Of a DNA stretch of 64,000 nucleotides, positions 16,637 to 38,221 are shown piece after piece. The notes under the pieces were generated by a model. The model made no database searches and was not told where the DNA came from. It saw only the letters and a program-made list of their open reading frames with translations. The position numbers were made by a program, and so were the translations under genes. The stretch's first letter is position 1, and each line of letters starts with the position of its first letter. The DNA comes from an uncultured bacterium (GTDB taxonomy: Bacteria; Patescibacteriota; Minisyncoccia; Phycocordibacterales; Phycocordibacteraceae), in NCBI GenBank assembly GCA_963851445.1, contig CAWKPH010000001.1, positions 553,363 to 617,362 on the forward strand, written 5' to 3'.

Positions 16637-17230
16637 TCAGGCCTCTGCTTCTCTTTTTCTGTATTTCTTTTCAAATTCCTTGCGTAGCGTTATAAGCGCA
16701 CGGCGATGAAGGCTCCGCACAGTATTCGCGGACATTTTGAGAATTTTTGCGATTTCTTCAAACGAAAGTTCTTGCTCGTAGCGCAGATTCAGTATCATCC
16801 GATCGCGCGGCCTAACTTCCTTCAAGGCCTCTTGAACTTCTCCTGCTTGTAGTGCGCGCTCGAAAAGTTCTTCAGGGAGTGGCTCAGGATCGGCGAGCGT
16901 ATCCATAAGTACATTACTGTCATCATCAGCATCGAACCGTGAGAAAGTAACCGATCTGCGCCTGCGCATAATGTCAGTTGCTGTATTTTTTGCGATTGCG
17001 AAGAGCCACGTACGCAGTGAACGTTTAGAATCAAAGCGATTCAAATTACGCCATGCTTTAAGGAATGTTTCCTGAACCGCATCCTGTGCGTCTTCGGTAT
17101 TTCCCATATACCGCACACAGAATGTATATAGTGCTTGAAGATGTCGATTAACAAGCTCTTGAAGTGCTTCGTCATTGCCACTCCGAGCCTTTTCTATGAG
17201 TTCCTGGTCGCTCTGTTGCTCGTCGGGCAT
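16637..17230 (-). CDS. ECF-subfamily RNA polymerase sigma factor
   Basis: Sigma-70 region 2 (DAQDAVQETFLKAWRNLNRFD) and region 4 (LSFEEIAKILKMSANTVRSLHRRAL) are present. Confidence 0.8.
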   Translation of the reverse strand: MPDEQQSDQELIEKARSGNDEALQELVNRHLQALYTFCVRYMGNTEDAQDAVQETFLKAWRNLNRFDSKRSLRTWLFAIAKNTATDIMRRRRSVTFSRFDADDDSNVLMDTLADPEPLPEELFERALQAGEVQEALKEVRPRDRMILNLRYEQELSFEEIAKILKMSANTVRSLHRRALITLRKEFEKKYRKREAEA

Positions 17231-17352
17231 ACGGATTCAGCATACCGTGCCTAGGCTCATTCGTCCCCGCACCTAAGCCCAACACTAAGAAATTATGCTT
17301 TAAAGTGATCATATCTTGTCTCAAATGCAAGATAAATAAGGTACCCCTTAAC

Positions 17353-19887
17353 TCAAACTGTTTTTAGCATGTCGTGTTTAATATCACTAAATGTTCCGTG
17401 TACCTTCTTGCCTGGGTTGAATATGCCCGATGGATCAAAAATACTTTTCGTCTCTTCAAAAAGCGCGACCATTTTGTCACCAAAAAGCATCGGGAGATAT
17501 GGAGTGCGAATAATGCCATCGTTATGTTCGCCAGTGGTCGTTCCCCCATATTTTATGACGAGCGCGTAAACTTTTGGGGCGAGGTCGATGACGACTTGAC
17601 GTACACTAGGCTTCGTAAGATCCATGAGTGGGATAATGTGGAAATTTCCGTTTCCAATGTGACCAGCGACTGTATAAATAAACCTATCTGAATATTCCGC
17701 AAGCAGCATGTCGAGTTCCGGAAGGAATTGTGGGTAGGTATCAGGGGGTACCACGAAATCATCGATAAAAGGCGATGCATAGAGACCATGTACATTCTTA
17801 CGAAGAAGGGCAAAGCTCTCGCGACGTACGATCCAGTATTTCTCCGACTCGCGTTCGTTTTTTTTGATACTCATCTGTAAACCCATGTCTCGAAGGGCAT
17901 CATGTGCTTCTTGTGCCCGTTGAAGCGCTTCTGTGGGGGTATCGGCAGAGAATTCTGCCATCAAAATAAGTTTGGGAACACCTCCGGAAATAACCATGGC
18001 AGTCTCCGGAATGAATGAAAGTCCTAGGCGAAGTGCGCGATTGAAGCCCATTTGCGAGAGCATTTGCGGCATGAATCTAATGGCAAGTTTAAAAGTCTGA
18101 TCATCATACGACTCAAATGATTCAGGATTGAAGGGAAGTACCCTGTGCACTATTTCTGGAAGTATCCTGAGATCTTTCAAGAAAATAACTAACATCGCAC
18201 GGTGACTTTCTTCTTTCACGAGTCGTAATTTTGCTTTGGTCATGAGAGCAAGCGTGCCCTGTGCCCCGCATATTAGACGCGCGAGATTAAAGGTACCTTT
18301 TCCGCTATGAATTACATTCCAAAGTGCGTATCCGGCAGAATTTTTCGATACTTTTGGTCTTGCATTTTGGATCACTTCGGCATTCTCCGTAATAAGTGCA
18401 TGCATCTTACGATAAATTTCGCCCTCGAAGTCCCGCTGGCGCTTCTTTTCTTCCAGTCCTGCCGGGTCAAGATCTTTAAAAGTCGTAAGTGTGCCATCTG
18501 AAAGCACCACCTCAATCTCTTCAATATAATCCTCAGTTTTACCATATTCAAGGGTGCGTTCGCCTCCTGAATTATTGTTCACGATACCTCCTATCGCACA
18601 GAGCTCGCGAGACGCAGGGTAGGAAGGAAGCACAAGATTCCCTCGAGCAAGTGTCTGTTTCTCAAAATCGCGATAGAAGACTCCTGGCTCGGCAACAGCA
18701 GAGCCGTGAGTTATGACGTGAGGTACCGTATCAGATTTTCTATCTGTTTCTTTGTTAATACTTATAATCCTGTTCATATATTTCAAAAAGACAGTGACGA
18801 TGGAATTCGTGAGTGGGCCTCCGCTCATGTCAGTTCCTGCCGATCGGCCAGTCAGGGAAACACTCTGGCCTGCATCTTTGGCAGCTCGTACGGTTTTTAC
18901 TAGCGCAACTACATCCTGTGTATCTTTGGGATATACAACGAGCGATGGCTTGATCTTGAAGAGACTTGTATCGCGACTATATTTTTCGATTTCAGACTCC
19001 GCATCGGTAACGTCACCTTTAATTGCCGACCGTATCTTTTCTTCAAGCTCGTTTGAGATATTTGATTGGGTGTCAGTTGTTGTAATGTCCTTCGTGATGA
19101 CCTTATCGTCACGGATCTCGAGCACTGTACTTACAGGTATCTCATCAAGCAAAGTCTTGATAAACGATGCAGTATCCAGTGGACCTTTTACTGCGTGGGT
19201 TGGAATATCTATTTTCGTAATTACTTCGTCATTACCTCCTTGTGTCAATCGATCTCCGACGTACAGCATTGCCGAAAGAGGCACATGTAATTCCTTTGCT
19301 AGTTGTTGTACGCCATAAGCTTTATCAATGCCTGGCTTTGTTACGTCAATCGAGGTCGCGCCCCCTATTTTCACATCAAAATCGGGCAAGAGCACCTTGA
19401 TCGCTTCCTGAAGTTTCCTTTTCTTTTCGCTGGTGGGGTCCCATCGACGCTTCTCGGCAATGGGTGCCTCCTGGCCGAGTGCGGAGATGGTAACTTGGGT
19501 TCCGCGAGTCTCAATTCGTTCACCATATGAAGGGAGAGAGAAATCGATGACTCCAGAATCTATCGCACCTTGTTCAATCGCTGTTTCTATCCGATCAATC
19601 TCTTTGGGATCAAGATCTTCTTCATATACCTTCGCCCAAGCCTGGTCATGATAAGCGAACATTTCCGCACCTGAAGTTGGGAAGAGGTAAAGATTGCGGA
19701 GTTCAGCAGAGGGCGGCAGTTCCTCGGTGACTTGATGGTGAAGCTGCTCCAATTTTTCACCCGTTATTACGGCAAGAATTGTTTTATTCAAAAGCTCTGC
19801 AATAAGTTTTGCCATATCGGAAGTTATTGGCACCTTACTTTCTGAAAGGGTATCGTCGAGATCAAATATGATAGCTTTCGGGATCAT
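17353..19887 (-). CDS. Fusion protein: N-terminal HAD-IIB (phosphomannomutase-like) phosphatase domain + C-terminal FAD-linked oxidase (GlcD/PCMH-type FAD-binding)
   Basis: HAD motif I IFDLDDTL and motif IV GDRLTQGGNDEV. The FAD-binding PCMH motif is GRSAGTDMSGGPL...AIGGIVNNNSGG. A C-terminal GGTTTGEHNDG motif is also present. Confidence 0.6.
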   Translation of the reverse strand: MIPKAIIFDLDDTLSESKVPITSDMAKLIAELLNKTILAVITGEKLEQLHHQVTEELPPSAELRNLYLFPTSGAEMFAYHDQAWAKVYEEDLDPKEIDRIETAIEQGAIDSGVIDFSLPSYGERIETRGTQVTISALGQEAPIAEKRRWDPTSEKKRKLQEAIKVLLPDFDVKIGGATSIDVTKPGIDKAYGVQQLAKELHVPLSAMLYVGDRLTQGGNDEVITKIDIPTHAVKGPLDTASFIKTLLDEIPVSTVLEIRDDKVITKDITTTDTQSNISNELEEKIRSAIKGDVTDAESEIEKYSRDTSLFKIKPSLVVYPKDTQDVVALVKTVRAAKDAGQSVSLTGRSAGTDMSGGPLTNSIVTVFLKYMNRIISINKETDRKSDTVPHVITHGSAVAEPGVFYRDFEKQTLARGNLVLPSYPASRELCAIGGIVNNNSGGERTLEYGKTEDYIEEIEVVLSDGTLTTFKDLDPAGLEEKKRQRDFEGEIYRKMHALITENAEVIQNARPKVSKNSAGYALWNVIHSGKGTFNLARLICGAQGTLALMTKAKLRLVKEESHRAMLVIFLKDLRILPEIVHRVLPFNPESFESYDDQTFKLAIRFMPQMLSQMGFNRALRLGLSFIPETAMVISGGVPKLILMAEFSADTPTEALQRAQEAHDALRDMGLQMSIKKNERESEKYWIVRRESFALLRKNVHGLYASPFIDDFVVPPDTYPQFLPELDMLLAEYSDRFIYTVAGHIGNGNFHIIPLMDLTKPSVRQVVIDLAPKVYALVIKYGGTTTGEHNDGIIRTPYLPMLFGDKMVALFEETKSIFDPSGIFNPGKKVHGTFSDIKHDMLKTV

Positions 19888-21812
19888 AGAGGAATATGTA
19901 GCGATGGAAGAAGCCGTTTGATAATTTCCTTTTTCGAGAGTGTTGCGACCCCCGTCGCGCAGTCGCCCCCGCCGTAATACACATAGAGCGTATCGTCACG
20001 CAACACAGCACCACACGAAAAGACGACGTTATGGACCTGTCCCTTACGCTCCCATTCAAGTATAGGTTCCAGGATTGGCATTGCCGTTCGAGAAATCACA
20101 CTTATACCGGCTTCCGCATCGAGAAGTGCCGCACCAAGTCGATATGCAAAATCGGGCCCCACCGCGTGGTATAGATAGAGCCACCCTTCTTCAACCCGTA
20201 TCGGTGGAGCAGCGCTTCCCACTTTTATGCCATCCCACATACCAAGCCTTGGAACCATAAGATCGATGCTGCGTTTTATCTTGGCAGTATCCATGGCATG
20301 TGGTGGAGGAAATTCATCAAGGAAATCGACACATATATTCGGATCAATCCGATGGATAAGCATAGTCTTTCCGCCAATTGGTTCAGGAAATATACAGAAG
20401 TCCTTGTCGTTTATGCCCACAGGGCTCAAAAATTGTGGTGACGACCAGTTGAAGTTCCTGGCAAGGAAATCATCGACAGAAATCGTTGAGAGCGCGCCAT
20501 GCGCGAGAACACCATCAAATGCAGTATAGGTGAGATAGAGTACATCACCGATGCGGGTAAGACGAGGATCTTCGGTACCACGTGCTTCTAAAACTTCGCG
20601 TGGTTTATATACTGGGTCAGGTAAACGTTCATCTATGTGGATGCCGTCCTTCGATTGTGCATATCCAAGGCGTGAAATCCCATCCTCTCCCATAGCACGG
20701 TAAAGGAGATGTATCGACCCTTCGAGTTCGATCGCGGCGGCATTGAACGTGGATAGTGATTCCCATGGATGCGAAGGATCTGGAGAAAGTATTGGTTGCT
20801 CGCTGACTCGGTTCATAAATTGAGCACGCTTATCCGCATACATGCAAGAAAGAAGGTCACTAAGAGAAAGCGCAGCTTCAGCCGCTACGGTATCCGCAGC
20901 TCCGTAAAATATGCGCAGAGTATCGCCATTCACGAGCGCGCCGGAAGGAAATACTACATTGGAGACGACGCCATACTTTTCATAAGGTTCTTCGGGTACC
21001 AAGAAGGGAAACTCGGTCTTTGCGAGTATCTGTTGTGGATCGTCAGAATCTAGTAGCAGCGCTTCGATTCCAAAGATCCGATTTCGTTCATCATAATAAT
21101 TTTGAATATGCGAATAGACAAGAAGCCATCCTTCTTTGGTCAAGATGGGAGTGGCGCCAATCTCTACGTGCTCAGTATCAGCACGCCTTACATCTGGAAA
21201 GGCATGATTCTCGAGATGCTCGTGCCATACATTCCAAAATTCGGGATTCCAAAAATCTTCAATATTCGATGCGTGTGCAAGACCAATGGTGGGACGTGGG
21301 TGTTCCTCGGTAAAATCAGTGTGGGCGGTTACCAGCATCACTACTTGGCCGTTGATGCGTTCGGGGAAAAGCGTAGCTGCCTTCGCATTGAAAGGTGTGA
21401 CGAGATGTCTTTCAGTCAGCTCGTCAGGGCGATCGCCTATGGCGACCGCCGCTTTGATGTTATCTGGACCGAACGGATATCCACCTAGCGCAGTGTAGAA
21501 AACATACCACTTACCCTCAAAGAACGTCGCGCGCGGATCTTCGCATCCGTATGTCTCCCAATCTTCTTTAGGGGCAATGACCTGTTTTCGATTTTCGAAC
21601 CCCCCGTCTTTATGCAAACATGTATAACCAATTGTTGAAAAGCCGCGTCCTGGGGTACGAATTTGATCTGGCTCAGCCATCGCTCGATAAAAAAGATGTG
21701 TGTCGCTTTCATGCACAACCGCTGAGGGATTAAAAGTGCCAATCGCTTCAAATGCATTCGCTCGCACAGGCGAGAGAAGTGGATTCCTTGGTGAACGGAA
21801 GACCGATAACAT
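19884..21812 (-). CDS. Tandem double GH130 (glycoside hydrolase family 130, beta-mannoside phosphorylase-like) protein
   Basis: Two GH130-like repeats are present. Each carries the G-x-EDPR motif (YGCEDPRATFF and RGTEDPRLTRIG) and a LFYRAM... N-terminal motif. Confidence 0.7.
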   Translation of the reverse strand: MLSVFRSPRNPLLSPVRANAFEAIGTFNPSAVVHESDTHLFYRAMAEPDQIRTPGRGFSTIGYTCLHKDGGFENRKQVIAPKEDWETYGCEDPRATFFEGKWYVFYTALGGYPFGPDNIKAAVAIGDRPDELTERHLVTPFNAKAATLFPERINGQVVMLVTAHTDFTEEHPRPTIGLAHASNIEDFWNPEFWNVWHEHLENHAFPDVRRADTEHVEIGATPILTKEGWLLVYSHIQNYYDERNRIFGIEALLLDSDDPQQILAKTEFPFLVPEEPYEKYGVVSNVVFPSGALVNGDTLRIFYGAADTVAAEAALSLSDLLSCMYADKRAQFMNRVSEQPILSPDPSHPWESLSTFNAAAIELEGSIHLLYRAMGEDGISRLGYAQSKDGIHIDERLPDPVYKPREVLEARGTEDPRLTRIGDVLYLTYTAFDGVLAHGALSTISVDDFLARNFNWSSPQFLSPVGINDKDFCIFPEPIGGKTMLIHRIDPNICVDFLDEFPPPHAMDTAKIKRSIDLMVPRLGMWDGIKVGSAAPPIRVEEGWLYLYHAVGPDFAYRLGAALLDAEAGISVISRTAMPILEPILEWERKGQVHNVVFSCGAVLRDDTLYVYYGGGDCATGVATLSKKEIIKRLLPSLHIPL

Positions 21813-21814
21813 AG

Positions 21815-22987
21815 TTATACGCCTATTGGCATACTGAGCACAGTGGGGGAAAGAGCCTGAGGCTCATGCTTGAGAAGCTTGTTCACAAATTGCGAAAGAG
21901 AGGTTGTGGCGCTGCAAACGAAATTGTCTGCGGCCCCGTAATACACGGTGAGCCGGTCATTCTCTTTGGCTGTGCCACAGGCATACACAACGCCTGGTTT
22001 TGCACCACCCATCTCATATTCTGTATTGGGTGTAAGCACGGGTATAGGACTGCGTACAATTACCTTTGTAGGGTCATTCTTTTCAAGAAGCATCGCTCCA
22101 ATTTGATAGAGATACTCGCTGCTGGTCGCATGGTAAAAGAGCAGCCACCCCTTATCAGTTTTAACTGGTGCTGGTCCTGCGCCACGCACCCAACTATCCC
22201 AGTGATTCGCGCGCCCTTCGGTCCTGGCTCCTCGTGGACTTTCAATATAAGGTTCTGACGTACCGACTGAGCCAAGATCTTTTCGATAGGCGACCTGAAC
22301 ATTTGGTGAAATGCTATGAAGTATGGCAAACATGCCATTTATTTTCTCGGGGAAAAGCACCCAATTCTTGTGGACTTCATTTTGCCGCGAAAGGAATACC
22401 GGCTTTGACCAATTCCAACGCTTCTTTTTCAGATCGGAAAGCGCAATTGAGGTAGTTGTGATACGCACCGAATCCCAGTTATGAAAGGCCGAAAATGTGA
22501 GATAGACACGATCACCCATGAGTACTGCACGTGGATCTTCTGCGCCACCCCATGACCCACCTGATGCGATTAGTTCAGGATAATGTGCATGGGCATATGC
22601 GCGACGCATCGCATCCAAATGTGGATCAGGCCCTTCAAATGCAAAGACAGGATAGGGAAGACGTTCATCGATATGTATACCGTCCTTTGAAGATGCGTAG
22701 CCAATGCGTGAGACGCCATCGCTGCCAATTGCTCGGTAAAAGAGATGAGTTTTTTCGCCATCACTTATCGCAGCAGGATTCATTACCGCCTCCTTCTCAA
22801 AATCATAACCACTCGGATGAAGAAGGGGATTGCCTTCGTTGCGCTTGAGCGAAAAATCTGCCGTGTCTATGGCATGCTGTTTCTCCATCCGCTTTGGCTG
22901 ACGGAATAATTCCCAAGCACCCCATAAGAAAAGAAATGTGGTCCCCAGCGCGAGCATAATTGCGAGGAATAAGATGATGATACTCAT
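21815..22987 (-). CDS. GH130-family glycoside phosphorylase/hydrolase with N-terminal TM anchor
   Basis: Motifs HLFYRAIGSDGVSRIGYASSKDGIHIDERL and GGAEDPRAVLMGDRVYLTFSAF, after an N-terminal hydrophobic helix. Confidence 0.7.
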   Translation of the reverse strand: MSIIILFLAIMLALGTTFLFLWGAWELFRQPKRMEKQHAIDTADFSLKRNEGNPLLHPSGYDFEKEAVMNPAAISDGEKTHLFYRAIGSDGVSRIGYASSKDGIHIDERLPYPVFAFEGPDPHLDAMRRAYAHAHYPELIASGGSWGGAEDPRAVLMGDRVYLTFSAFHNWDSVRITTTSIALSDLKKKRWNWSKPVFLSRQNEVHKNWVLFPEKINGMFAILHSISPNVQVAYRKDLGSVGTSEPYIESPRGARTEGRANHWDSWVRGAGPAPVKTDKGWLLFYHATSSEYLYQIGAMLLEKNDPTKVIVRSPIPVLTPNTEYEMGGAKPGVVYACGTAKENDRLTVYYGAADNFVCSATTSLSQFVNKLLKHEPQALSPTVLSMPIGV

Positions 22988-23002
22988 AATATTCTTATAA
23001 AT

Positions 23003-23356
23003 TTATACACGTCCGAAATCATCCTCGACACGTTCAATGTCGTTCTCATCAAAGTTTCCGATTGAAATCTCGAGTACCGCTACGCCCTGCTCACCGCCCC
23101 TCAGTCTATGGAGTGTTTCTGGGGGAATTTCAATTTCGTCGTTCATACTGATCTGCCATTCCTTATCACCAACATGAGCAACTCCGTCTCCTCCAATGAC
23201 CTTCCACCATTCTGAGCGGTGCGTATGCTTTTGGAGAGATAGTTCCTTGTTAGCGTCAATGTGCAGAATCTTTACAGTCGAAGGTTCATTTTCAGTAAAT
23301 CGTTCAAACGATCCCCAGGGGCGATGCTCCTCATACCGATTAGACAAAAGGGACAT
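23003..23356 (-). CDS. Cupin-type mannose-6-phosphate isomerase (type II PMI C-terminal cupin domain-like)
   Basis: RPWGSFERF...HRSEWWKVIGG...GD cupin motifs. It is the first gene of the mannoside operon. Confidence 0.65.
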   Translation of the reverse strand: MSLLSNRYEEHRPWGSFERFTENEPSTVKILHIDANKELSLQKHTHRSEWWKVIGGDGVAHVGDKEWQISMNDEIEIPPETLHRLRGGEQGVAVLEISIGNFDENDIERVEDDFGRV

Positions 23357-23483
23357 AAGATATATACAGAATACCTTATAATCGCTCGGTTTACTCTGGG
23401 GAATAAGTGCATAGCAGAATTCATCTTCTCAAGTCAATTCGCCATATAAACTTATGCAAGTATACTAAGCACACCTGTCACTT

Positions 23484-24236
23484 ATGGAACGGATACCTTT
23501 TTTCTCGATTGTAGTTCCTGCCCATAATGAGGAAGCATACATAGGACAGACGCTTGAAAAGCTCTGTGCGCTCGAGTACCCGAAGGATTTCTATGAGGTA
23601 ATTGTCGTCGAGAACGGTTCTGACGATGCTACTCTTATGAAAGCAAGAGAATTTGAGCACGGAAGGGATACCCCTATCAAAGTATTTACCTGTAAGGAAC
23701 CAGGCGTTTCAAGAGCGCGAAATATGGGTAGCACGAAGGTTCGTAGCGATGCGGACTGGGTATTTTTTCTTGACGCCGATACCTTTCCTGACCCACCCTT
23801 TTTGCGATCGTTCCTACGATACCTTGACGCGAATGCATCTAAAAAATTTGTCGTCGGCACAGTATCCCTTGGGCCTTATCCCTCAACCATAGTCATGCGT
23901 GTGATATACGCGGTTACGAATGTATTCTTTTCATTCTCCGGTGCCGCTTACGGCGGCGCACTCCTCATCCGCCGTGAACTACTCGAGTCGATTTCGTTTG
24001 AAGAAGATATTCATGTTGGTGAGGAGGCATCACTCATCACATGCGCAAAACGAAAGGGACGATATTTTTTCTTTTACACTGCATACGCTCACACATCAAC
24101 ACGCAGATTTCAGAATGGTGGCTGGAAAAAAATCCCAATTTGGATAGGAATGTGGATATTTGCTATGATAGTTCCAAACCATGCCTCCATTTCATCCTCA
24201 ATCCATCGTCGCTTCAAGTACAAAGCAGTTCGCTAA
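23484..24236 (+). CDS. Family 2 glycosyltransferase
   Basis: FSIVVPAHNEE...VVENGSDD...FFLDAD (GT-A DxD). Confidence 0.75.
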   Translation: MERIPFFSIVVPAHNEEAYIGQTLEKLCALEYPKDFYEVIVVENGSDDATLMKAREFEHGRDTPIKVFTCKEPGVSRARNMGSTKVRSDADWVFFLDADTFPDPPFLRSFLRYLDANASKKFVVGTVSLGPYPSTIVMRVIYAVTNVFFSFSGAAYGGALLIRRELLESISFEEDIHVGEEASLITCAKRKGRYFFFYTAYAHTSTRRFQNGGWKKIPIWIGMWIFAMIVPNHASISSSIHRRFKYKAVR

Positions 24237-24972
24237 ATTGCATCAAGCAACAACGCATTTTGCATCTCGATTCATCACGACCCCAGTCGCCGCATTCATT
24301 GCTTGGCTCAGTGTTCATACACACATTGCATATCTAGCACTTTTTATCGGTGCCTATCTTGATGCACTTATTGGTCCTTCACTTTTAATACCCGGTGAAG
24401 TCGTGTTCCTTTCGGGTTCGATTCTTGCGGGAAGACACGTTCTTCTTATTTGGCTCGTAGCTCTTTATGTATATCTGGGAGGCATTTTGGGGGATACAAC
24501 AAGCTATTGGATTGGGCGCGCGCTCGGCATTTCTCTTTTTCACGAACGTAAGAAGTTTCTGAACATAAGGCACTATCACAATGCGCGGAAGTTTGTCGAC
24601 AAGTACGGTCCGAAAGCAATTTTTTTTGCTCGACTCGTAGGCCCATTCTCAAAGATCGCACCAACCCTTGCCGGTATTCTCGAAATCCCTTTCGGGACTT
24701 TTCTCCTATATAACATCCCAGGCGTATTGGTTGGTATCGGGGAGTTCCTTCTCATCGGATATATTTTTGGGAATCGCTATGAGCTTGTCCTGTGGCTCTT
24801 TGAGCGATATACGATTCTATTTTTTATTGCGCTTTTTGCAGCACTCCTTATCCATTGGCAATATAAAAAACACCGCGCTCGCAAGAAGCGAAATGGGCTG
24901 AGATACCAAGGATGGGGAAGACAAAACAAAAGATTCCTAAGGAGTAATGGAATTCAGCAGGAAGTGGGGTAG
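24181..24972 (+). CDS. DedA/SNARE-associated family membrane protein (start may be downstream of the annotated overlap)
   Basis: The GEVVFLSGSILAG motif and a multi-TM topology. Confidence 0.7.
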   Translation: MPPFHPQSIVASSTKQFAKLHQATTHFASRFITTPVAAFIAWLSVHTHIAYLALFIGAYLDALIGPSLLIPGEVVFLSGSILAGRHVLLIWLVALYVYLGGILGDTTSYWIGRALGISLFHERKKFLNIRHYHNARKFVDKYGPKAIFFARLVGPFSKIAPTLAGILEIPFGTFLLYNIPGVLVGIGEFLLIGYIFGNRYELVLWLFERYTILFFIALFAALLIHWQYKKHRARKKRNGLRYQGWGRQNKRFLRSNGIQQEVG

Positions 24973-24984
24973 TATAGGTAGCGT

Positions 24985-25845
24985 ATGCTCACATACACGC
25001 AAGCATTCATTCTAGGACTCGTGCAGGGTGTGACTGAACTTTTTCCGGTTTCGAGCCTCGGCCACAGTGTACTTCTTCCCACACTTCTGGGCTGGCAGAT
25101 ATCGCAAAGTGCCCCTATGTTTGTCGAATTTCTAGTCATCACGCACGTTGCGACCGCACTTACCCTACTCGCATACTTTTGGCAGGACTGGATACGCCTT
25201 GCTAAGGGTTTTATTCGGTTGATTTTTACACAAAGTACTAGTCCGACAGATCCGTATAGCCGGCTTGCATGGCTTCTTGTGGTCGCCACCATTCCAGCAG
25301 GTCTTCTGGGCCTTCTCTTCCAGAATTCGATTGAGAACTTATTTTCTGCACCACGTATCGTTGCTGGAATGCTGATTTTGAACGGATTACTGCTCTATAT
25401 AGCTGAAAGCTTAAAACGCCGTCGCACACGTCTCGAAAACACGCGTATCTCGGGTGATGTTGCGATAGTAACTAAACTTTCGTGGCTTTCTGCGTTCGGC
25501 ACGGGACTCATGCAAGCACTCGCACTTATTCCAGGATTCTCTCGTACCGGGGCTTCGCTCACAGGAGGTCTCCTTTCTGGACTTGATCGCGAAAGCGCAG
25601 CACGTTTCTCGTTCCTTCTTGCAACGCCCCTCATACTTGCCGCTGGAGCACTTAAATTGCCACAACTCTTCCATGCTCAGTATCCTGTTATGCCGCTTCT
25701 TTTTGGCGCGCTTATTGCCGCGTGCGCCTCATACCTTTCTGTAGCATTTCTTACGCGGTACTTTAGAACGAACACACTCATACCATTTGCATGGTACTGT
25801 ATCGTACTAGGCGGGCTATCTCTTATCGCTCTTGTCTATTTTTAA
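24985..25845 (+). CDS. uppP: Undecaprenyl-diphosphatase
   Basis: BacA/UppP motifs GLVQGVTELFPVSSLGHS and GFSRTGASLTGG, with 8 TM helices. Confidence 0.85.
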   Translation: MLTYTQAFILGLVQGVTELFPVSSLGHSVLLPTLLGWQISQSAPMFVEFLVITHVATALTLLAYFWQDWIRLAKGFIRLIFTQSTSPTDPYSRLAWLLVVATIPAGLLGLLFQNSIENLFSAPRIVAGMLILNGLLLYIAESLKRRRTRLENTRISGDVAIVTKLSWLSAFGTGLMQALALIPGFSRTGASLTGGLLSGLDRESAARFSFLLATPLILAAGALKLPQLFHAQYPVMPLLFGALIAACASYLSVAFLTRYFRTNTLIPFAWYCIVLGGLSLIALVYF

Positions 25846-25944
25846 TTCTGAGTATCCTTATAGTCACAAGGATCGTATTTATGTTTTCGACCTATACAAA
25901 ATCATGCTAGCGTATAAGAGAAAATGTGACACAGTGAAAAAATC

Positions 25945-26886
25945 ATGAAATTTTCATGCATTTCTGCGGTTATCCCAGTTCATAATGAGGCAGGGAACCT
26001 GAAAAGACTCCACGAGGAGCTCGTCCAGGTACTTTCGACTTGTAGCTCAGAGTACGAAATTATTTATGTAAACGATGCAAGTACTGATGGATCGCTCGCT
26101 GAGCTCCAAACATTGAAGGATTGTACGATTATTAATTTGCGTCGCAAATACGGTCAGGCGACTGCACTCGATGCCGGTTTCAAGGCAGCGAAAGGAGATT
26201 TGATCGTCTCGCTTGACGGCGACGGTCAGAATGACCCCGCAGATATTCCAAAACTACTCCGTGAGCTTGAGGACAAGAATTTCGATGTCGTTACTGGCTG
26301 GCGCAAGCAACGCGCTGACAATCATGGTATTCGAGTCCTTACGCGTATTGGTCGTGCATTCCGGCGGTTTCTCATCCAGGATCCAGCTCATGACACCGGG
26401 TGTACCCTCCGAGTGTATCGCGCCGAAGCTATAAAGAGCCTTGAACTCGGGGGTGAAATGCATCGCTACATACTCGCACTCTTGCGCTGGAAGGGATTCA
26501 CTGTTGGAGAAGTCGTCGTGAGGGACCGTCCACGCTTACATGGCAAGAGCAAATACGGCTATGGCAAGGCTGTACGAGGGCTTATTGATCTCATATACAT
26601 TTGGTTCATTTACAAATATTCACAGCGCCCGCTCCACCTCTTTGGCTATATGAGCTTTGCTGCGCTTGCGGCCGGCGCCATATCCCTTGTTCTCACTATT
26701 TATGACCGCACGGTACTGGGTATCCACCTGAATGACGATGGCTGGTTTTATATCACATTCTTTCTTTTAATCGCGGCAATAATGCTATTCTCATTTGGCA
26801 TCATCATTGATCTATTGCTGCGCATCTACCTCAGTACCTCGTCCGTGCAAAAACCATACTACGTTAAGGATATTCAAAAGATATAG
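25945..26886 (+). CDS. Polyprenyl-phosphate glycosyltransferase (GT2, DPM1/GtrB/ArnC-like) with C-terminal TM helices
   Basis: ISAVIPVHNEAGN...YVNDASTDGS...LDGDGQND, with two C-terminal TM segments. Confidence 0.75.
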   Translation: MKFSCISAVIPVHNEAGNLKRLHEELVQVLSTCSSEYEIIYVNDASTDGSLAELQTLKDCTIINLRRKYGQATALDAGFKAAKGDLIVSLDGDGQNDPADIPKLLRELEDKNFDVVTGWRKQRADNHGIRVLTRIGRAFRRFLIQDPAHDTGCTLRVYRAEAIKSLELGGEMHRYILALLRWKGFTVGEVVVRDRPRLHGKSKYGYGKAVRGLIDLIYIWFIYKYSQRPLHLFGYMSFAALAAGAISLVLTIYDRTVLGIHLNDDGWFYITFFLLIAAIMLFSFGIIIDLLLRIYLSTSSVQKPYYVKDIQKI

Positions 26887-26898
26887 TTTTAGATAACT

Positions 26899-27264
26899 CT
26901 ACTTTTTCTCATTCCAACGCCATGCCGCGTGCTCACCAGTTTTGTAACAAACCCAAAGGACAATGATGGTAATAAGGATGATCCATATAAAGAAACCAGC
27001 GACCACAAGAGCTGAAGCGGGAGTAGAGCCAAGTGCAATAGGATCGTTCGAGAATTGAAGAGTGAAGAGAAGGACCGAGCCCGCAATTATAAGGGCATAG
27101 CCGAGGGTCACAAACCATCCCTCAATGGAGATGGGTACCCACCCAAGGCCATATCTTTTTGCCCTAAACCAGGGCCGTTTTTGATATCTTTTCATGGGTA
27201 GCAAGTGTAGTCCGTGCAAAGAGAAAAAGCAAGTCTTTAGGCCATATTTTCTCGCTTTGTCCAT
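26899..27264 (-). CDS. Small membrane protein (hypothetical)
   Basis: 121 aa with two TM helices. Confidence 0.4.
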   Translation of the reverse strand: MDKARKYGLKTCFFSLHGLHLLPMKRYQKRPWFRAKRYGLGWVPISIEGWFVTLGYALIIAGSVLLFTLQFSNDPIALGSTPASALVVAGFFIWIILITIIVLWVCYKTGEHAAWRWNEKK

Positions 27265-27380
27265 TCAAAGTTCCATAGAAATTGCTTGACAAAAAGGGTC
27301 CCTAGATGATAGGATAGCCCTATGGGTTAGATAGGTCAGGAGGCTCTATTCGTAGAGCCTTTCGCCTTTCTACCTCACTT

Positions 27381-28016
27381 ATGCATAAGATCCTGCCCCT
27401 CATGGGGCTACTTCTTCTAGCAAATAGTGTCTTAGCGCCAACAATGGCCAATGCCCAGACAGCGCCCGGCTCGTTTACCCCGAGTTCGACTAGCGCCCCA
27501 ACAGGCATGACGACCAACCAAGCGGTTCAGGAATCCACAGCGACACCACTCAGTCTCTCGGTGACGCTTACCTCGTATAATGCGGTTCCTGCTCAAACTA
27601 GCCCGACGCCGTGGATCACGGCGAGCGGTGCCCCCTCTGACTCGCAGGTAATCGCAGCACGATCTCACGATCTTGCGGGCGAGCTACCATACGGGACGAT
27701 TATCGCCATTGAGGGTCCGACCTCTTCTGGTGGGTATACCTGTGGCTATAGCGACGTTCAGGGTCTTATCGGGTATCGCGTAATTGCCGACGAGATGAAT
27801 ATCCGAATGAAAAACAAGGTCGACGTGATGCTTAATCAATACGATACAGTTCCTGTGGGAGACCGATATATAAATCCTGCAGTAGCCCTCGGTGCCTGCG
27901 CTGGAACACACATTCAAATAGTGGGGTACGTTAACCCCCAACATATTCCGAGCACCCAGGCAGGACTTGCAGCTCTCGTAACAGGTGGTCAAGATCTCGC
28001 ATTTGCAAAGTTCTAA
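27381..28016 (+). CDS. Secreted protein, possible 3D (MltA/RlpA-like) domain
   Basis: Signal peptide MHKILPLMGLLLLANSVLA. VIAARSHDLAGELPYGTIIAIEG and the later D/N-rich segment weakly resemble a 3D domain. Confidence 0.35.
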   Translation: MHKILPLMGLLLLANSVLAPTMANAQTAPGSFTPSSTSAPTGMTTNQAVQESTATPLSLSVTLTSYNAVPAQTSPTPWITASGAPSDSQVIAARSHDLAGELPYGTIIAIEGPTSSGGYTCGYSDVQGLIGYRVIADEMNIRMKNKVDVMLNQYDTVPVGDRYINPAVALGACAGTHIQIVGYVNPQHIPSTQAGLAALVTGGQDLAFAKF

Positions 28017-28061
28017 TAGTTTCGATCACTCTCCCAAGATAATCTGCTACACTATTCGGAC

Positions 28062-29537
28062 GTGGAAAGGTGGTTTTCGGTAATGAAGAACCAGCGCGCC
28101 CTAGGCGCAACGATCCTTATTGTTGCCATACTTATAAGTGCTTCGGTGATCTTACTCTATCGACTTGGCGCTGAACCACTTCAGGACTACGATGAAGCAA
28201 CCTATGCGGAAATAACATCTGAAAGCCTCGCTTCACACCACTTCTTCTCTTTTACCTTCCTTGATAATCCTTATTTTAATAAACCGCCTCTTCTTTTTTG
28301 GTTAACCGATGCAAGTAAGTCGATCATTTCGAGTCCTGAACTAGCTGACCGTCTACCTTCAGCGCTCTCAGCCTTGGCGCTTATCGCGTTAATGATACTC
28401 ATTACATACGAGGCAACAGGAAACCCATTCGCTGCAGCCTGGGGCGGCGCCATATTACTGACTACGAGCGCATTTATCGAGCCCGCGCGGCAGGTCCGAT
28501 TCGATCTCCTCGTCACATTTTTCGATCTCCTCGCAGTATATGCCTTTTGGAAAGCTTTCGATCCTCTAAACTCTAGAAATTCTTTTCGTGGTAGGTGGTT
28601 TTTAATCTTTGGAATCTCAGTCGGGCTTGCCGTGCTTGCCAAAGGTCCTATTGCGCTCTATGCGGTCACGCCCATTTTTGGGATCGCCACTGTATATCAG
28701 AATTTCAAATGGATTCGAAACCCCTCATTTTGGTGGGGCATATTGCTATCGCTTTTGATCATTCTTCCCTGGCATCTCTATGAAACATATCGATTTGGGT
28801 TAACCTTTTGGAAGACCTATCTTGTTGATCAGCTTCTTAATCGTGTTGATGAAGTATTTTTTACTATACATCCTACTAATATGGATTATATTTCGTATGC
28901 ATTCGGTTTTGGCGCACCTTGGCTTGCAATTTTTTGCGTAAGTATTATCGTCGCAATCTTCATATGGAACCGCATATCTCCTTCTGTTCGGGCACTTTTT
29001 GCTGCCTCTGTTATTGGAGTCTTTTCGGTCTTTTCGGTTGATTTTATAACTAAAACAAAGGCATTTAATTATCTGATCCCTTTATACCCCTTTGTAGCGC
29101 TTTGCGTCTCACTCATGGGATATGAAATTGGGCGCCTGCGATTCCCTAGGATCCGGACTTTGCTCAGTTTGATTGCAATAGTACTTACGGGAATGGGTCT
29201 TTGGCTCACGATTTTCAATGCATTTCATATCAATTCTTATTACGCGAGTGAGGTATCGCTCGCTGATCAGGAGAAAGCGATCGGGACGCTTCTCAAAGAA
29301 GATCATGCTCCTACCTTCTACGTATACGACACGACCACCCTGGGTTCAATAATGTTCTATAGTGGACTCGTAAAACCAATCTTCATGGGAAGCGCGACAG
29401 CAGCGGTGTCGCAGGGATCATTTGTTCTCTACGAAACTATGCAGCACGATGCGCTCATTGCAAAATACCCCAATTTGTCAGGCATGCCGGTGTATAACGG
29501 AGCCTCCCTCAGCCTAGTTCAAGCCCAGCATGTTTAG
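28062..29537 (+). CDS. GT39/ArnT-like (PMT family) polyprenyl-phosphate-sugar-dependent glycosyltransferase
   Basis: About 11 TM helices, an N-terminal acidic DE motif (DYDEATYAE) in the first loop, and a periplasmic C-terminal domain. Confidence 0.65.
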   Translation: MERWFSVMKNQRALGATILIVAILISASVILLYRLGAEPLQDYDEATYAEITSESLASHHFFSFTFLDNPYFNKPPLLFWLTDASKSIISSPELADRLPSALSALALIALMILITYEATGNPFAAAWGGAILLTTSAFIEPARQVRFDLLVTFFDLLAVYAFWKAFDPLNSRNSFRGRWFLIFGISVGLAVLAKGPIALYAVTPIFGIATVYQNFKWIRNPSFWWGILLSLLIILPWHLYETYRFGLTFWKTYLVDQLLNRVDEVFFTIHPTNMDYISYAFGFGAPWLAIFCVSIIVAIFIWNRISPSVRALFAASVIGVFSVFSVDFITKTKAFNYLIPLYPFVALCVSLMGYEIGRLRFPRIRTLLSLIAIVLTGMGLWLTIFNAFHINSYYASEVSLADQEKAIGTLLKEDHAPTFYVYDTTTLGSIMFYSGLVKPIFMGSATAAVSQGSFVLYETMQHDALIAKYPNLSGMPVYNGASLSLVQAQHV

Positions 29538-29856
29538 TTGAGCGTATCTGAAGCATCATGTTCCGGACGTAGATGAAAAGCGAGGCAATCTGTGCCGTTG
29601 TGAAGACAATATCTCGTATGTGGATGGAATAAATGAGGATAAGCACCGAGCCACCAAGGGATAGATACCAGAAGGACATTGGAATCACTACTGCCTTTTC
29701 TTTTTCGGATTTAATCCACTGTATGATGAATCGAAGAAAAAAGACGAATTGGCCGAAAAAACCAAAAACAACCCAAGGATTAAGTAGCTCGGCACTAAGC
29801 GTTGCAATGGAAGTCATGAAAATAAACGTAAGGTACAGTATACTCTGTAAATGCAA
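29509..29856 (-). CDS. Lipid-A-disaccharide-synthase N-terminal-like (LAB_N) membrane protein
   Basis: FFGQFVFFLRFIIQWIKSEKEKAVVIPMSFWYLSLGGSVLILIYSIHIRD matches the LAB_N signature. Confidence 0.6.
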   Translation of the reverse strand: MHLQSILYLTFIFMTSIATLSAELLNPWVVFGFFGQFVFFLRFIIQWIKSEKEKAVVIPMSFWYLSLGGSVLILIYSIHIRDIVFTTAQIASLFIYVRNMMLQIRSTKHAGLELG

Positions 29857-30294
29857 AAAAGTATTGATAAACAGAAACGTAAGAAAAATAGTAAATTCAC
29901 ACCCGGAAATTTCGAATTAAAAGTCAAAAGATCAAGTGCTGGGCTAGGACTCTTTGCGGGTCAAGATATTCCAAAGGGGAAGTGTGTAATCGAATATTTT
30001 GGTAGGATTGTTAGCAAAAAGGAGGAAGAGACAAGTCGCAGCAAATATCTCTTTGAGATACGCAAAGGAAAGACTATAGACGGTGCGGCGAGAGTTAATA
30101 TTGCTCGTTACGTAAATTATTCACATCGTCCCAATTGTGAATCGGAAATCTACAAAGATAAGGTTTACTATTTTTCGATACGACCTATCAAAACAGGCCA
30201 GGAACTTACGGTCGACTACGGGAAGGAATATTATGATGAACACATAAAGCCTTATGGCTGTCGCTGTGAGATATGCGTACAAAAAGCTCGGTAA
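29851..30294 (+). CDS. SET-domain protein (lysine methyltransferase-like) with post-SET Cys cluster
   Basis: NIARYVNYSHRPNCE and ELTVDYGKEYY motifs, with C-terminal CRCEIC. Confidence 0.6.
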   Translation: MQKSIDKQKRKKNSKFTPGNFELKVKRSSAGLGLFAGQDIPKGKCVIEYFGRIVSKKEEETSRSKYLFEIRKGKTIDGAARVNIARYVNYSHRPNCESEIYKDKVYYFSIRPIKTGQELTVDYGKEYYDEHIKPYGCRCEICVQKAR

Positions 30295-34707: not shown

Positions 34708-35682
34708 ATGGTGTCTTCAAAAGAAGAAACAAGCTCTCCAGCTCTCAAAATAGAACATTTACAGAAAGTATATGTTGGAGGTGGGGACGGAGGAATGACC
34801 AAGGGGACTACACATGAGGCCCTGAAGGATGTGTCGCTTACAGTTTCAAGTGGCGAATTTTTTGCGTTACTAGGTCCTAACGGCGCGGGTAAATCAACAC
34901 TCATTGGTATCCTTGCTGGCCTCGTGGTGAAAACAAGCGGGAGCGCCGAAGTTTGTGGTATTTCCATAGACTCCAATCCCGAGAAAGCGAAATCCTATAT
35001 TGGACTGGTGCCCCAGGAGTTTAATCTGAATTGGTTTGAGACATCCTTGGAGATCGTTGTAAATCAGGCAGGATATTACGGCATTCCTAGACACAAAGTA
35101 ATGCCAAGAGCAGAGGAGCTTCTAAAGAATCTAGGTCTTTGGGAGAAACGAAATGATCAATCACGCACACTCTCAGGGGGAATGAAGCGCAGGCTTATGA
35201 TTGCGCGCGCGCTCATTCATGAGCCGAGAGTACTCCTTCTTGATGAACCAACCGCAGGGGTTGATGTGGAGCTTCGACGAGAAATGTGGATTTTTTTGCG
35301 AGAGCTTAATAAAAATGGTACAACCATCATCCTTACGACGCACTATCTCGAGGAGGCAGAACAGCTTTGCCGAGAAGTAGCTATTATTCACCATGGAGAG
35401 ATTATCAAGAAGGGAACCGTAAAATCTCTTCTCACGAGTTTAAACTTTGTGACGCTTCTTCTTGACACTGCTGCGCCTGTGCAACCGTCCACGATGACCC
35501 TTCTCAGAGAGTTTCCTCTCACCAAGGTTGACGATATAACCCTTGAGCTGAAACTTATGCCAGGGCAAACGGTTAATGAAGCAATGCGCAAGCTCACGGC
35601 AGTCGGAGTACAGGTACTCAATATTCGAAACACAGGTAGCCGCCTCGAAGAGGTGTTCATTAATATGATAGGAGAAAAATAG
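34708..35682 (+). CDS. ABC-2 type transporter ATP-binding protein
   Basis: Walker A GPNGAGKST, signature LSGGMKRRLMIARAL and Walker B LLLDEPTAGVD. Confidence 0.9.
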   Translation: MVSSKEETSSPALKIEHLQKVYVGGGDGGMTKGTTHEALKDVSLTVSSGEFFALLGPNGAGKSTLIGILAGLVVKTSGSAEVCGISIDSNPEKAKSYIGLVPQEFNLNWFETSLEIVVNQAGYYGIPRHKVMPRAEELLKNLGLWEKRNDQSRTLSGGMKRRLMIARALIHEPRVLLLDEPTAGVDVELRREMWIFLRELNKNGTTIILTTHYLEEAEQLCREVAIIHHGEIIKKGTVKSLLTSLNFVTLLLDTAAPVQPSTMTLLREFPLTKVDDITLELKLMPGQTVNEAMRKLTAVGVQVLNIRNTGSRLEEVFINMIGEK

Positions 35683-35683
35683 T

Positions 35684-37530: not shown

Positions 37531-38041
37531 AAAGAGTACGATATTCCTCAAGGAGCTTCAGGAAGCGCTCAATCTCAAGCGGGTTAAGTTTTTCGTGATC
37601 TTGAATTAGTATTTCGGGCACGATTACCGACGGAACGTTAAAGAAGGTAAGCAGTCCCTGTATAACGGCGCGAGTGTGTTGCGCCCCATAGTCTTGATTT
37701 TTTTGGTTACTACTTATGAATCCGATAGTCTTCTGGGTATAAATATCGGATGTCCGTACCATATCGAAGAAGTTCTTGAGTACGCCCGGCATACTTTTAT
37801 AGTAGGTGGGTACAATGAAAAGAAGGACCTCTGCTTCTCGCATTTTTGTTAATTCCGCGTGCTGCTCTGGTGTCGAAGATTCAAACGTAACATATTTTCC
37901 ACTGAAGAAAGTATCGAAAGGGATGAGGGATACAAGCGAGCAGGCCACGTGCTTTTCCTCCGCGACCTCAATACACTTCTTGGCCACTATCCGCGTTGTA
38001 TTCTCTTCACGGATCGAGCCAGAAACAATACAAACTTTCAT
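37508..38041 (-). CDS. NADPH-dependent FMN reductase
   Basis: MKVCIVSGSIREENTTR...LLFIVPTYYKSMPGVLKNFFD. Confidence 0.6.
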   Translation of the reverse strand: MKVCIVSGSIREENTTRIVAKKCIEVAEEKHVACSLVSLIPFDTFFSGKYVTFESSTPEQHAELTKMREAEVLLFIVPTYYKSMPGVLKNFFDMVRTSDIYTQKTIGFISSNQKNQDYGAQHTRAVIQGLLTFFNVPSVIVPEILIQDHEKLNPLEIERFLKLLEEYRTLFRKKDSP

Positions 38042-38129
38042 TTAACCAATTATAGTGACAAGTAAGGGAATTGTCTCTAAATCTTAAACGAGCTCCCAAC
38101 ATCACGTTACTATACCTCTGCTGTTTAAT

Positions 38130-38200: not shown

Positions 38201-38221
38201 GGCGATCACTGTCGAGTTGGC

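Follow-up and report, generated by a model that had tools for sequence, protein, structure and literature searches.

A three-module GH130 cassette near-universal in Paceibacteria and its possible part in cytoplasmic β-1,2-mannoside turnover

Introduction

The closest known system to the genes described here is a pair of GH130 enzymes from Thermoanaerobacter sp. X-514, the 1,2-β-oligomannan phosphorylase Teth514_1788 and the β-1,2-mannobiose phosphorylase Teth514_1789, which are encoded beside a five-gene ABC importer, a GH5 gene, ManC and a GT4 gene (PMC4264767). We analysed a 64,000-nucleotide (nt) stretch of contig CAWKPH010000001.1 (positions 553,363 to 617,362; assembly GCA_963851445.1) from an uncultured bacterium of the Phycocordibacteraceae, hereafter the window, which carries at 17353-23356 a gene cassette with three GH130 modules that we call A, B and C. 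All of these enzymes and modules are propellers of about 300 amino acids (aa) without a GH130_4 lid, and both systems have the Glu and Lys determinants of β-1,2 specificity and paralogues that lie side by side. The Teth514 enzymes are both canonical, separate and soluble, whereas two of the three modules here lack the phosphate site, two are fused and one is anchored in the membrane. The partners also differ: the cassette is accompanied by a phosphomannomutase (PMM)-like protein and a phosphomannose isomerase (PMI) instead of ManC, and it has no linked importer. Candidate phyla radiation (CPR, or Patescibacteria) bacteria, to which this genome belongs, have tiny genomes and a physiology that is little understood.

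In GH130 enzymes the proton donor is an Asp (D104 of UhgbMP), phosphate is bound by Arg168 and His231 (UhgbMP numbering) and β-1,2 specificity can be told from a Glu/Lys pair in the +1 subsite; the hydrolases of the family lack the basic residues and have carboxylates instead, such as Glu227 and Glu268 of BT3780 (PMC7660257; PMC4599007). The phosphate contacts of Uhgb_MS are K184, R202 and R242, of which R202 corresponds to UhgbMP R168; GH130_6 enzymes are obligate dimers, and all characterized β-1,2 GH130 phosphorylases show some transferase activity with GDP-mannose (GDP-Man) (PMC12814180). In the literature that we searched for GH130 together with Patescibacteria, Parcubacteria, CPR, PH1107 or DUF377, the cassette is not described. 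The PMI and the mutase, like module C, are assigned below a chemistry that is already known; what those searches did not turn up is the three-module organization, the two large subgroups with altered phosphate sites (an Arg-less one on a membrane tether and a cytoplasmic one with carboxylates) and the near-universal presence in Paceibacteria.

Organization and conservation of the cassette

The cassette consists of four open reading frames (ORFs) on the minus strand, located by ORF listing and translation. In gene order they encode a cupin-type PMI (23003-23356, 117 aa), the transmembrane (TM)-anchored GH130 module A (21815-22987, 390 aa), a tandem GH130 protein, B::C (19884-21812, 642 aa), and a fusion of a HAD-IIB domain with a flavin adenine dinucleotide (FAD)-linked oxidoreductase (17353-19887, 844 aa). 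In the sequence, gaps of 15 nt and 2 nt separate the first three genes, and the last two overlap by 4 nt (ATGA). A preliminary description of this locus had noted the tight packing, with 15 nt as the largest gap, and the junction sequence agrees; Pfam and NCBIfam likewise recovered every domain that it had named, and the motifs that it had quoted are present in the translations (RPWGSF and HRSEWW in the cupin; G-x-EDPR in each GH130 module, as GAEDPR, GCEDPR and GTEDPR). Scans of 16900-23700 for σ70 promoters (7 sites, 11.1 expected from shuffles) and for intrinsic terminators (8 sites, 5.8 expected) were uninformative. Because these scans gave no signal above shuffles, it is gene packing and conserved order that argue for co-transcription.

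We scanned one genome per species and found the motifs of the B-type (N-terminal GH130) module in at least 596 genomes. The neighbourhoods of the best 80 of these, to which the locus counts below refer, were scored with hidden Markov models built for this analysis. Essentially all 80 carry Patescibacteria labels (Parcubacteria-type names: Kaiser-, Adler-, Taylor-, Nomura-, Zambryski- and Campbellbacteria, and Paceibacterota); among them are also metagenome-assembled genomes (MAGs) labelled plainly 'bacterium' and many labelled 'uncultured Candidatus Saccharibacteria', and 3 of the 80 are labelled Omnitrophota or Planctomycetia. The close named homologues all come from MAGs of Patescibacteria, Parcubacteria, Paceibacterota or Minisyncoccia. 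B and C occupy one ORF at every locus (80/80), a TM-type module A lies directly upstream of B::C at 70-73 loci (about 90%), a HAD mutase is found within 3 kb of B::C at 68 (85%) and a cupin PMI stands upstream of module A, within 3 kb, at 43 (54%). Unbiased clustering of the neighbours at the 80 loci returned no other widely shared partner. From these counts, and because no further partner is shared, the functional unit is (PMI)–A–B::C–mutase, and it is near-universal in Paceibacteria. Relatives at 55-65% identity have the same gene order with different flanks, and the order of the window recurs in loci L002, L004, L006, L008 and L010.

GH130–GH130 proteins, of which CAZy overall holds a handful (PMC7660257), are the norm in Parcubacteria, so that the word 'unusual' first applied to the tandem protein does not fit this lineage. 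Three proteins carry all three modules on a single chain, A::B::C, in the same order and without a TM helix (P0196, 996 aa; P0199, 1110 aa; P0361, 971 aa), and P0199 is followed by a cupin PMI. Because B::C is always fused and A::B::C fusions exist, the three modules probably act as one unit. Further A::B::C fusions were considered in tblastn matches of about 2.9 kb (L032, L051, L052, L071, L090 and L092) and rejected, as an in-frame test found A::B fusions at 0 of the 80 loci. At L011 (3929-14076), the triple protein P0196 is encoded between a full bifunctional ManC and an alginate-like synthesis operon with a YknX-like membrane-fusion protein, a UDP-Glc/GDP-Man dehydrogenase, an alginate-lyase-like protein and a large GT2 protein. 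Some Kaiserbacteria-type loci have an extra ORF without a Pfam match inserted between A and B::C (L039, 6886-7995, 369 aa; L022, 7520-7996, 158 aa).

Active sites of the three GH130 modules

All three modules belong to the GH130 family of five-bladed propellers. Pfam family PF04041 matches the 390-aa protein (6.3e-37, 127.7 bits) and two stretches of the 642-aa protein (2e-86, 290.3 bits; cut-off 26), and the top Foldseek matches are GH130 structures. The modules are mutually 27-35% identical, and the best solved relatives of each are Teth514_1788 and Teth514_1789, members of GH130_6. B::C (407.1 bits) and module A (186.5 bits) stay below the cut-off of 450 for NF052550, the β-1,2-mannobiose phosphorylase model; the cassette proteins are relatives of that model, not equivalogs. 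Membership of GT108 was considered and rejected: there was no GT108 chain among the PDB sequence matches at 1e-5, and for module A Foldseek gave 6q50/6q4y at E values of 6e-8 to 1e-7 and 12-13% identity, against 3e-28 for Teth514_1788.

Residue patterns were read from an alignment of six cassettes and then from 118 tandem and 116 TM-type homologues. We mapped the diagnostic residues published for the family (PMC7660257; PMC4599007; PMC12814180) onto the modules through HMMER alignments, counting along them to place K184 as the Lys of 'NKD', R202 as the Arg of 'HR' and R242 as the Arg of 'ARVG'; the Teth514_1788 and Teth514_1789 references were rebuilt from HMMER alignments and span residues 5-295 and 15-311 rather than full chains. 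The catalytic Asp is invariant in every module (D151 in A, D92 in B, D415 in C), the −1 subsite Asn and the C-terminal Asp are kept in 115-118 of 116-118 homologues, and the E-D and K determinants of β-1,2 specificity are invariant in A, B and C. From these residues, a β-1,2 linkage is predicted for all three modules.

Module C (19887-20828, minus strand; residues 329-642 of B::C) has the canonical signature of a β-1,2-mannoside phosphorylase. N357, R372, E414-D415, K470, H487-R488, K530 and H549 are each present in 118 of 118 homologues and D617 in 116; within this set, K470, R488, K530 and H549 occupy the positions of K184, R202, R242 and the phosphate-site His. Module C shares 39% identity with Teth514_1788 (203 bits, E 4e-59), its closest NCBIfam model is NF052550, and it alone among the modules combines the phosphorylase Arg (R488) with the His (H549).

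Module B (20829-21812, minus strand; residues 1-328) has a hydrolase-like active-site signature. It keeps N28, R43, E91-D92, K144 (118/118) and D307 and is 32% identical to Teth514_1788 (29-32% to the Teth514 enzymes), and it has neither the phosphorylase Arg nor the His: T165 stands at the R202 position in 118 of 118 homologues, the adjoining D166 is invariant, E217 takes the R242 position in 117 of 118 and S234 the His position. By index arithmetic and residue spacing, as distinct from a printed alignment, E217 falls on Glu268 of BT3780 and D307 aligns with Asp363; the underlying matches pair B 212-311 with 3qc2 244-348 and B 20-311 with 5a7v 70-371. On this mapping, module B would resemble the GH130_3 enzymes BT3780 and BACOVA_03624 in having lost the basic residues for carboxylates while keeping the catalytic Asp and the β-1,2 Lys. 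It is nevertheless nearer the GH130_6 phosphorylases (131 bits) than BT3780 (48 bits), its putative second carboxylate is an Asp beside the Arg position, and, unlike BT3780, it has no signal peptide, is predicted to be cytoplasmic and is fused to a phosphorylase module. B::C begins MLSVFRSPRNPLL and has no hydrophobic leader of the kind expected of secreted GH130_3 proteins. NF058598 scored 143.8 bits (cut-off 550), and D166 would be at most a candidate counterpart of BT3780 Glu227. A search with module B in 1.84 billion representatives delineated a coherent B subgroup with the signature T/S–E–S/A/C, whose members are B::C tandems, A::B::C triples and stand-alone proteins of about 325 aa.

An AlphaFold2 (AF2) model of B::C (pLDDT 92, pTM 0.90) is compatible with a fixed two-propeller body, and B::C may be a fused, diverged dimer, given that GH130_6 enzymes are dimeric.

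Module A retains N70, R85, E150-D151, K207, R268, H286 and D354 and is 33-35% identical to Teth514_1788 and Teth514_1789; its AF2 model (pLDDT 85.4) has TM-scores of 0.82-0.84 to 9gph/9fj8. The phosphorylase Arg is missing, whereas H286 and the second Arg, R268, are present: position 225, the equivalent of Uhgb_MS R202, is Ser in 77 homologues, Asn in 22, Gly in 14 and Ala in 3, and Arg in 0 of 116. There are no carboxylates of the BT3780 Glu227/Glu268 type. The claim that each GH130 protein is a phosphorylase is therefore supported for module C alone, which has the phosphate-binding Arg/His set; the diagnostic Arg is missing from all 118 B and all 116 A homologues. Two contigs labelled Omnitrophota and Planctomycetia encode A-like modules of 615-621 aa (L087, 6132-7997; L074, 6122-7969) with some 290 additional N-terminal residues that match no Pfam family. 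Because the A-like module of L087 keeps the His-Arg phosphate motif (FHRVFP), the loss of the Arg appears to be specific to the TM-anchored form of Parcubacteria.

Two further systems offer points of comparison. The GH130_4 enzymes Uhgb_MS and Lin0857 are the source of the K184, R202 and R242 residue map and show that β-1,2 GH130 enzymes can use GDP-Man; their own GDP-Man transferase activity is weak, their phosphate site is complete, they carry a lid loop of 48 aa, and they match the cassette modules at 81-107 bits. The Leishmania mannogen system, with the GT108 enzymes MTP1-7, is the nearest functional analogy. Both it and the cassette have paralogous five-bladed propellers that act, or in the cassette would act, on β-1,2-mannan in the cytoplasm; each set has members without the phosphate-site Arg and members that keep it, and both connect to the pool of mannose-1-phosphate (Man1P), mannose-6-phosphate (Man6P) and fructose-6-phosphate (Fru6P). 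GT108 is however another family (no match at E≤1e-5), the lost Arg is replaced by His there and by Ser or Thr here, and the cassette differs from the Leishmania system in having no linked GDP-mannose pyrophosphorylase.

Membrane anchor of module A

The N terminus of module A forms a TM helix (22913-22981, minus strand; approximately residues 3-25), as judged from hydrophobicity, charge pattern and the AF2 model, in which a helix spans residues 2-45. Its hydrophobic 19-mer has a mean Kyte-Doolittle value of 2.78, and all 116 homologues begin with a hydrophobic 19-mer of mean value above 1.6. Lys and Arg residues in the homologues average 0.06 ahead of the helix, against 3.06 over the 15 residues that follow; because the positive-inside rule reads this pattern as N-out/C-in, the helix would be an anchor with the catalytic domain on the cytoplasmic side. 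The propeller should thus be cytoplasmic and the N terminus an anchor rather than a secretion signal. A cytoplasmic location fits enzymes that use phosphate or sugar phosphates and removes the idea of a surface mannosidase.

Isomerase, mutase and flavoenzyme

The cupin matches PF01050 MannoseP_isomer (3.5e-21, 76 bits; cut-off 23.6) and aligns with profile positions 358-466 of TIGR01479 GMP_PMI, its C-terminal PMI part. It carries RPWGSF and QKHTHRSEWW, that is, the RPWG and HxH...E elements of type II PMIs, and we take it to be a type II PMI, an assignment in which the activity is predicted from these features. No solved structure matched it at E≤1e-3. It has in common with the bifunctional GDP-mannose pyrophosphorylase–PMI enzymes of the ManC/AlgA type the match of PF01050 and TIGR01479 to their C-terminal PMI part and the RPWG and QxHxxRxExW motifs, but it is a stand-alone protein of 117 aa without a nucleotidyltransferase domain.

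The HAD-IIB domain (19138-19887, minus strand; residues 1-250 of the 844-aa fusion) matches PF03332 PMM (2.7e-11, 44.2 bits; cut-off 22.4) and TIGR01484 (60.4 bits; cut-off 41.8), and its motifs FDLDDT, ITGEK and VGDRLTQGGND are intact, as in the PMM/PgmH subfamily. Residues 3-247 align with residues 3-248 of the α-phosphoglucomutase PgmH of Lactococcus lactis (4BND; E 1.5e-42), and the end-to-end alignment and catalytic motifs are the same. PgmH is described, in the title of Neves et al. (2006), as a glucose-phosphate mutase encoded by a stand-alone essential gene; the domain described here is instead tied to GH130 genes and, in the lineage of the window, fused to a flavoenzyme. The domain can be called a sugar-phosphate mutase. 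Because the closest solved enzyme is PgmH and the GH130 linkage holds at 68 of the 80 loci, its specificity for mannose is suggested by context rather than by its own sequence.

The FAD-linked domain (17356-19020, minus strand; approximately residues 290-844) is of the GlcD/D-lactate dehydrogenase/YdiJ-N type. It matches PF01565 (1.7e-23) and PF02913 (6.9e-38); the best NCBIfam models are the N-terminal part of YdiJ (240.8 bits of 1350) and then GlcD (169.3 of 567.9), both below their equivalog cut-offs, and the PDB matches are glycolate oxidase, LctD, D-lactate dehydrogenase and D-2-hydroxyglutarate dehydrogenase. By these matches it belongs to the FAD_binding_4 + FAD-oxidase_C family and is classed as a 2-hydroxyacid-dehydrogenase-type enzyme. 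Across Patescibacteria its identity to homologues is 62-74%, whether these are fused (62-73%) or stand alone at about 555 aa (66-74%), and it is far more conserved than the HAD domain (medians of 69% and 48%; HAD range 35-58%). The fused form occurs in 48 of the 118 closest homologue clusters, with fused and unfused forms interleaved by similarity. At L008 the two parts are separate genes, for a 257-aa HAD protein and a 556-aa FAD protein, that overlap by 4 nt; at L010, where the HAD gene again encodes about 250 aa, two other genes stand between them; and L009 has the FAD gene but no neighbouring cassette. Overall, the FAD gene lies within 3 kb of the cassette at 11 of the 80 loci, fused in 2 of these 11 adjacent pairs, and somewhere at about 19. 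Because of L009, L010 and the pattern of identities, the FAD gene is best read as conserved in its own right and as fused through its downstream position, and treating the fusion as a functional unit, as had been done, is not sustained. Directly downstream of the FAD gene, on the opposite strand, L006 (11156-13569) and L008 (8796-11200) carry cytochrome bd oxidase subunits I and II, which hints at a flavoenzyme that feeds electrons to a minimal oxidase chain.

Proposed pathway and alternatives

We consider it about an even chance that the cassette is a cytoplasmic, membrane-associated module for β-1,2-mannoside turnover that feeds Fru6P. Activities, substrate and net direction of flux are what we infer from the gene content, residue patterns, conservation and fusions described above. 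Module C, acting as a GH130 phosphorylase, would interconvert β-1,2-mannosides plus phosphate with α-Man1P, the HAD-IIB domain would convert Man1P to Man6P as a PgmH/PMM-type mutase, and the cupin would isomerize Man6P to Fru6P. The complete route from β-mannosides through Man1P and Man6P to Fru6P that was first proposed for this locus stands in part: C, the HAD mutase and the cupin would encode it and are kept together across Parcubacteria, but a single module has the features of a phosphorylase and the HAD domain is nearest to PgmH. Modules A and B would be ancient paralogues that kept the catalytic Asp and the β-1,2 subsites and gave up phosphate binding. With D166 and E217 at or next to the Arg positions, B is hydrolase-like and so most likely clears, by hydrolysis, a mannosyl linkage that resists phosphorolysis by C. 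The most likely role of module A, whose tether leaves the catalytic domain inside the cell, is to keep the system at the membrane and to act on a membrane-proximal or priming substrate, and the FAD domain would be a separate 2-hydroxyacid-dehydrogenase-type enzyme, fused as the next gene. Because there is no linked importer, the cassette is near-universal in a lineage of tiny genomes and the tether points inward, a cell-made or cell-associated β-mannoside is a more likely substrate than an environmental oligosaccharide, and we argue that catabolism of free environmental β-1,2-mannosides is the less likely use.

Several points weigh against this turnover reading. The origin of the substrate is argued solely from missing transporters and distribution, and we know of no report of β-1,2-mannan in CPR bacteria. 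The PMI is missing from the neighbourhood at 46% of the 80 loci, and the HAD domain is nearer to the phosphoglucomutase 4BND (1.5e-42) than to any solved PMM (1e-14 or weaker). Module A still has K207, R268 and H286, and one lost Arg does not prove lost phosphorolysis; moreover, 48 of its 116 homologues have an Arg two residues past the lost one, which might in part make up for it structurally in certain lineages, although the window protein has Ser there, at 227. The placing of B on BT3780 was made by index arithmetic and spacing rather than from a printed alignment or three-dimensional coordinates. The activities of A, B and C are all predictions, the phosphate-site Arg was an insufficient predictor of phosphorylase activity in work on GT108 (PMC10913872), and the characterized GH130 hydrolases are secreted (PMC4599007), whereas B has no signal peptide.

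A strictly catabolic operon would instead process imported environmental or host β-mannosides, with all three modules being phosphorylases of differing chain-length or linkage preference and Man1P passing to glycolysis. The closest characterized enzymes are indeed phosphorylases for catabolism or salvage that differ from one another in chain length (PMC4264767), the catalytic Asp is kept in all modules, as are subsites −1 and +1, and the PMM and PMI are the required downstream steps. CPR bacteria are also thought to scavenge from hosts. We regard this version as rather unlikely, because the diagnostic Arg is missing throughout A and B, with B also lacking the His and having Glu at the second Arg position, and because a membrane anchor has no obvious role in the catabolism of soluble oligosaccharides. 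Nor is there a route of entry: no solute-binding-protein importer lies within 8 kb at any of the 80 loci (0/80), and among the window ORFs scanned with Pfam and NCBIfam (about 44 of the 74 of at least 90 aa) there was neither a sugar importer nor an NTP-transferase, whereas the Thermoanaerobacter cluster has an importer and a GH5 gene (PMC4264767). β-1,2-Mannosides are moreover rare in nature (PMC4264767), yet the cassette is found in at least 596 species. The 'catabolic operon' for external mannosides of the preliminary description is thus not supported, since no importer was found at these loci or among the scanned ORFs and the anchor places the enzyme inside the cell. The loss of phosphate-site residues in both A and B, the confident packing of B against C (pTM 0.90) and the obligate dimers of GH130_6 (PMC12814180) would also suit A and B as degenerate, non-catalytic propellers that bind carbohydrate or scaffold for an active C, with B::C a pseudo-dimer and A an anchor. 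This seems improbable to us: across 116-118 homologues of A and B there is little or no variation at the catalytic Asp, at Asn and Asp of subsite −1 or at Arg, Glu and Lys of subsite +1, and because T165, D166 and E217 are themselves invariant, selected new chemistry in B is the better reading than decay.

The same genes could run the other way, from Fru6P through Man6P to Man1P, to make and remobilize an endogenous β-1,2-mannan, be it a reserve like mannogen or a mannan of the membrane or envelope, with A as a transferase-like enzyme (possibly using GDP-Man or Man1P) and C performing phosphorolysis; we hold this to be possible but doubtful. Leishmania cycles mannogen with paralogous GT108 enzymes, transferase-only and phosphorylase, and the transferase-only forms lack the same Arg (PMC10913872; PMC12814180); β-1,2 GH130 phosphorylases themselves have some GDP-Man transferase activity (PMC12814180). 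Module A is tethered on the cytoplasmic side, like many glycosyltransferases, no importer is linked at the 80 loci, and at L011 the A::B::C fusion stands beside ManC and alginate-like synthesis genes. However, ManC is linked at 1 of the 80 loci, and the scanned window ORFs include no NTP-transferase. Module A is structurally GH130_6 and not GT108 (Foldseek E values of about 1e-28 and about 1e-7), and in a reserve cycle energy would be lost through a hydrolase-like B; the phosphate levels of cells also disfavour reverse phosphorolysis. In the window and its closest relatives the cassette adjoins GT2, DedA, UppP and ABC-2 exporter genes, but the ABC-2 transporter lies within 3 kb at 8 of the 80 loci and UppP at 7; because so few loci share these envelope neighbours, and because L009 keeps the GT2, VTT, BacA and FAD genes without a cassette, they are most simply lineage synteny. 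Least probable of all, and very unlikely in our view, is that the HAD::FAD fusion is itself meaningful, such that the flavoenzyme oxidizes a sugar or hydroxy acid of the mannoside pathway and a single four-gene pathway ends in oxidation. The fusion does recur, in the 48 of 118 clusters mentioned above, and the FAD gene is often the next after the mutase. Yet it occurs without the cassette and apart from the mutase, it lies near the cassette at few loci, its fused and unfused forms are equally similar to that of the window, it is the more conserved partner and it adjoins cytochrome bd oxidase genes at two loci; its family, moreover, acts on D-2-hydroxyacids and not on sugars.

The proposed turnover module, a cassette of 4.5-6 kb that at least 596 species-level genomes retain, probably has a central place in the carbohydrate handling of Paceibacteria. 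It also offers two large, strongly conserved GH130 subgroups with altered phosphate sites beside a canonical module C that serves as internal control, and so makes directly testable what sets phosphorylase, hydrolase and transferase activity apart in GH130. The automatic names 'GH43/DUF377 hydrolase', 'β-1,2-mannobiose phosphorylase' and, for the fusion, 'phosphomannomutase' would mislead metabolic reconstructions. The cassette raises the possibility of endogenous β-1,2-mannan in bacteria. In the boldest form of this idea, which we put forward as a long shot of much the same doubtful standing as the cycling scheme above, Paceibacteria would make and remobilize their own β-1,2-mannan at the inner face of the membrane, as a GH130 counterpart of Leishmania mannogen. 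Module A would then be the primer or synthase, C an energy-conserving phosphorylase and B a hydrolase clearing the primer or the linkages that C cannot cleave, and the PgmH-type PMM and the cupin PMI would tie the polymer directly to Fru6P. If true, CPR bacteria would have a first defined pathway for a carbohydrate reserve or an envelope mannan, and GH130 would have its first modules whose cytoplasmic chemistry is new and non-phosphorolytic.

Genomic surroundings

Envelope-glycan and lipid-carrier genes occupy 23484-29537 on the plus strand, divergent from the cassette. They encode a GT2 protein (23484-24236, overlapping the next ORF by 56 nt), a DedA/UptA-like protein (24181-24972), the undecaprenyl-diphosphatase UppP (24985-25845), an ArnC/PgfS-like polyprenyl-phosphate sugar synthase of family GT2 (25945-26886), a 211-aa ORF without a family and a PMT/ArnT-like GT-C protein (28062-29537). 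An ABC-2 transporter pair, ATPase and permease, lies about 11 kb from the cassette (34708-36487, plus strand); in the closest relatives (L013, L015-L019, L040 and L085) this pair directly and divergently adjoins it. A functional link of the cassette to the GT2, DedA, UppP, PMT-like GT-C and ABC-2 genes was considered and rejected on the neighbour counts given above.

No tRNA and no Rfam family was found at gathering score in the whole window. Many short ORFs (about 100-350 aa) fill approximately 38000-51700, where the GC content, about 0.50, is slightly above that of the rest; none of those tested matched a Pfam family. A trypsin-like peptidase is encoded at 49732-50406, and a 338-aa HATPase_c + DUF4325 STAS-like protein at 51887-52903 (plus strand), where GC content dips locally to 0.425. 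A SET-domain protein of 147 aa is encoded at 29851-30294 on the plus strand (PF00856, 2.5e-20); SET domains belong to a lysine-methyltransferase family that is typically eukaryotic, whereas this one stands in a CPR genome. Towards the end of the window, 58434-63819 (plus strand) holds a flippase-like Polysacc_synt gene followed by GT2, GT4, GT2 and GT4 genes. This second glycan cluster runs into markedly lower GC content (0.356 at 62-64 kb) with strong positive GC skew, and it may be an acquired polysaccharide island.

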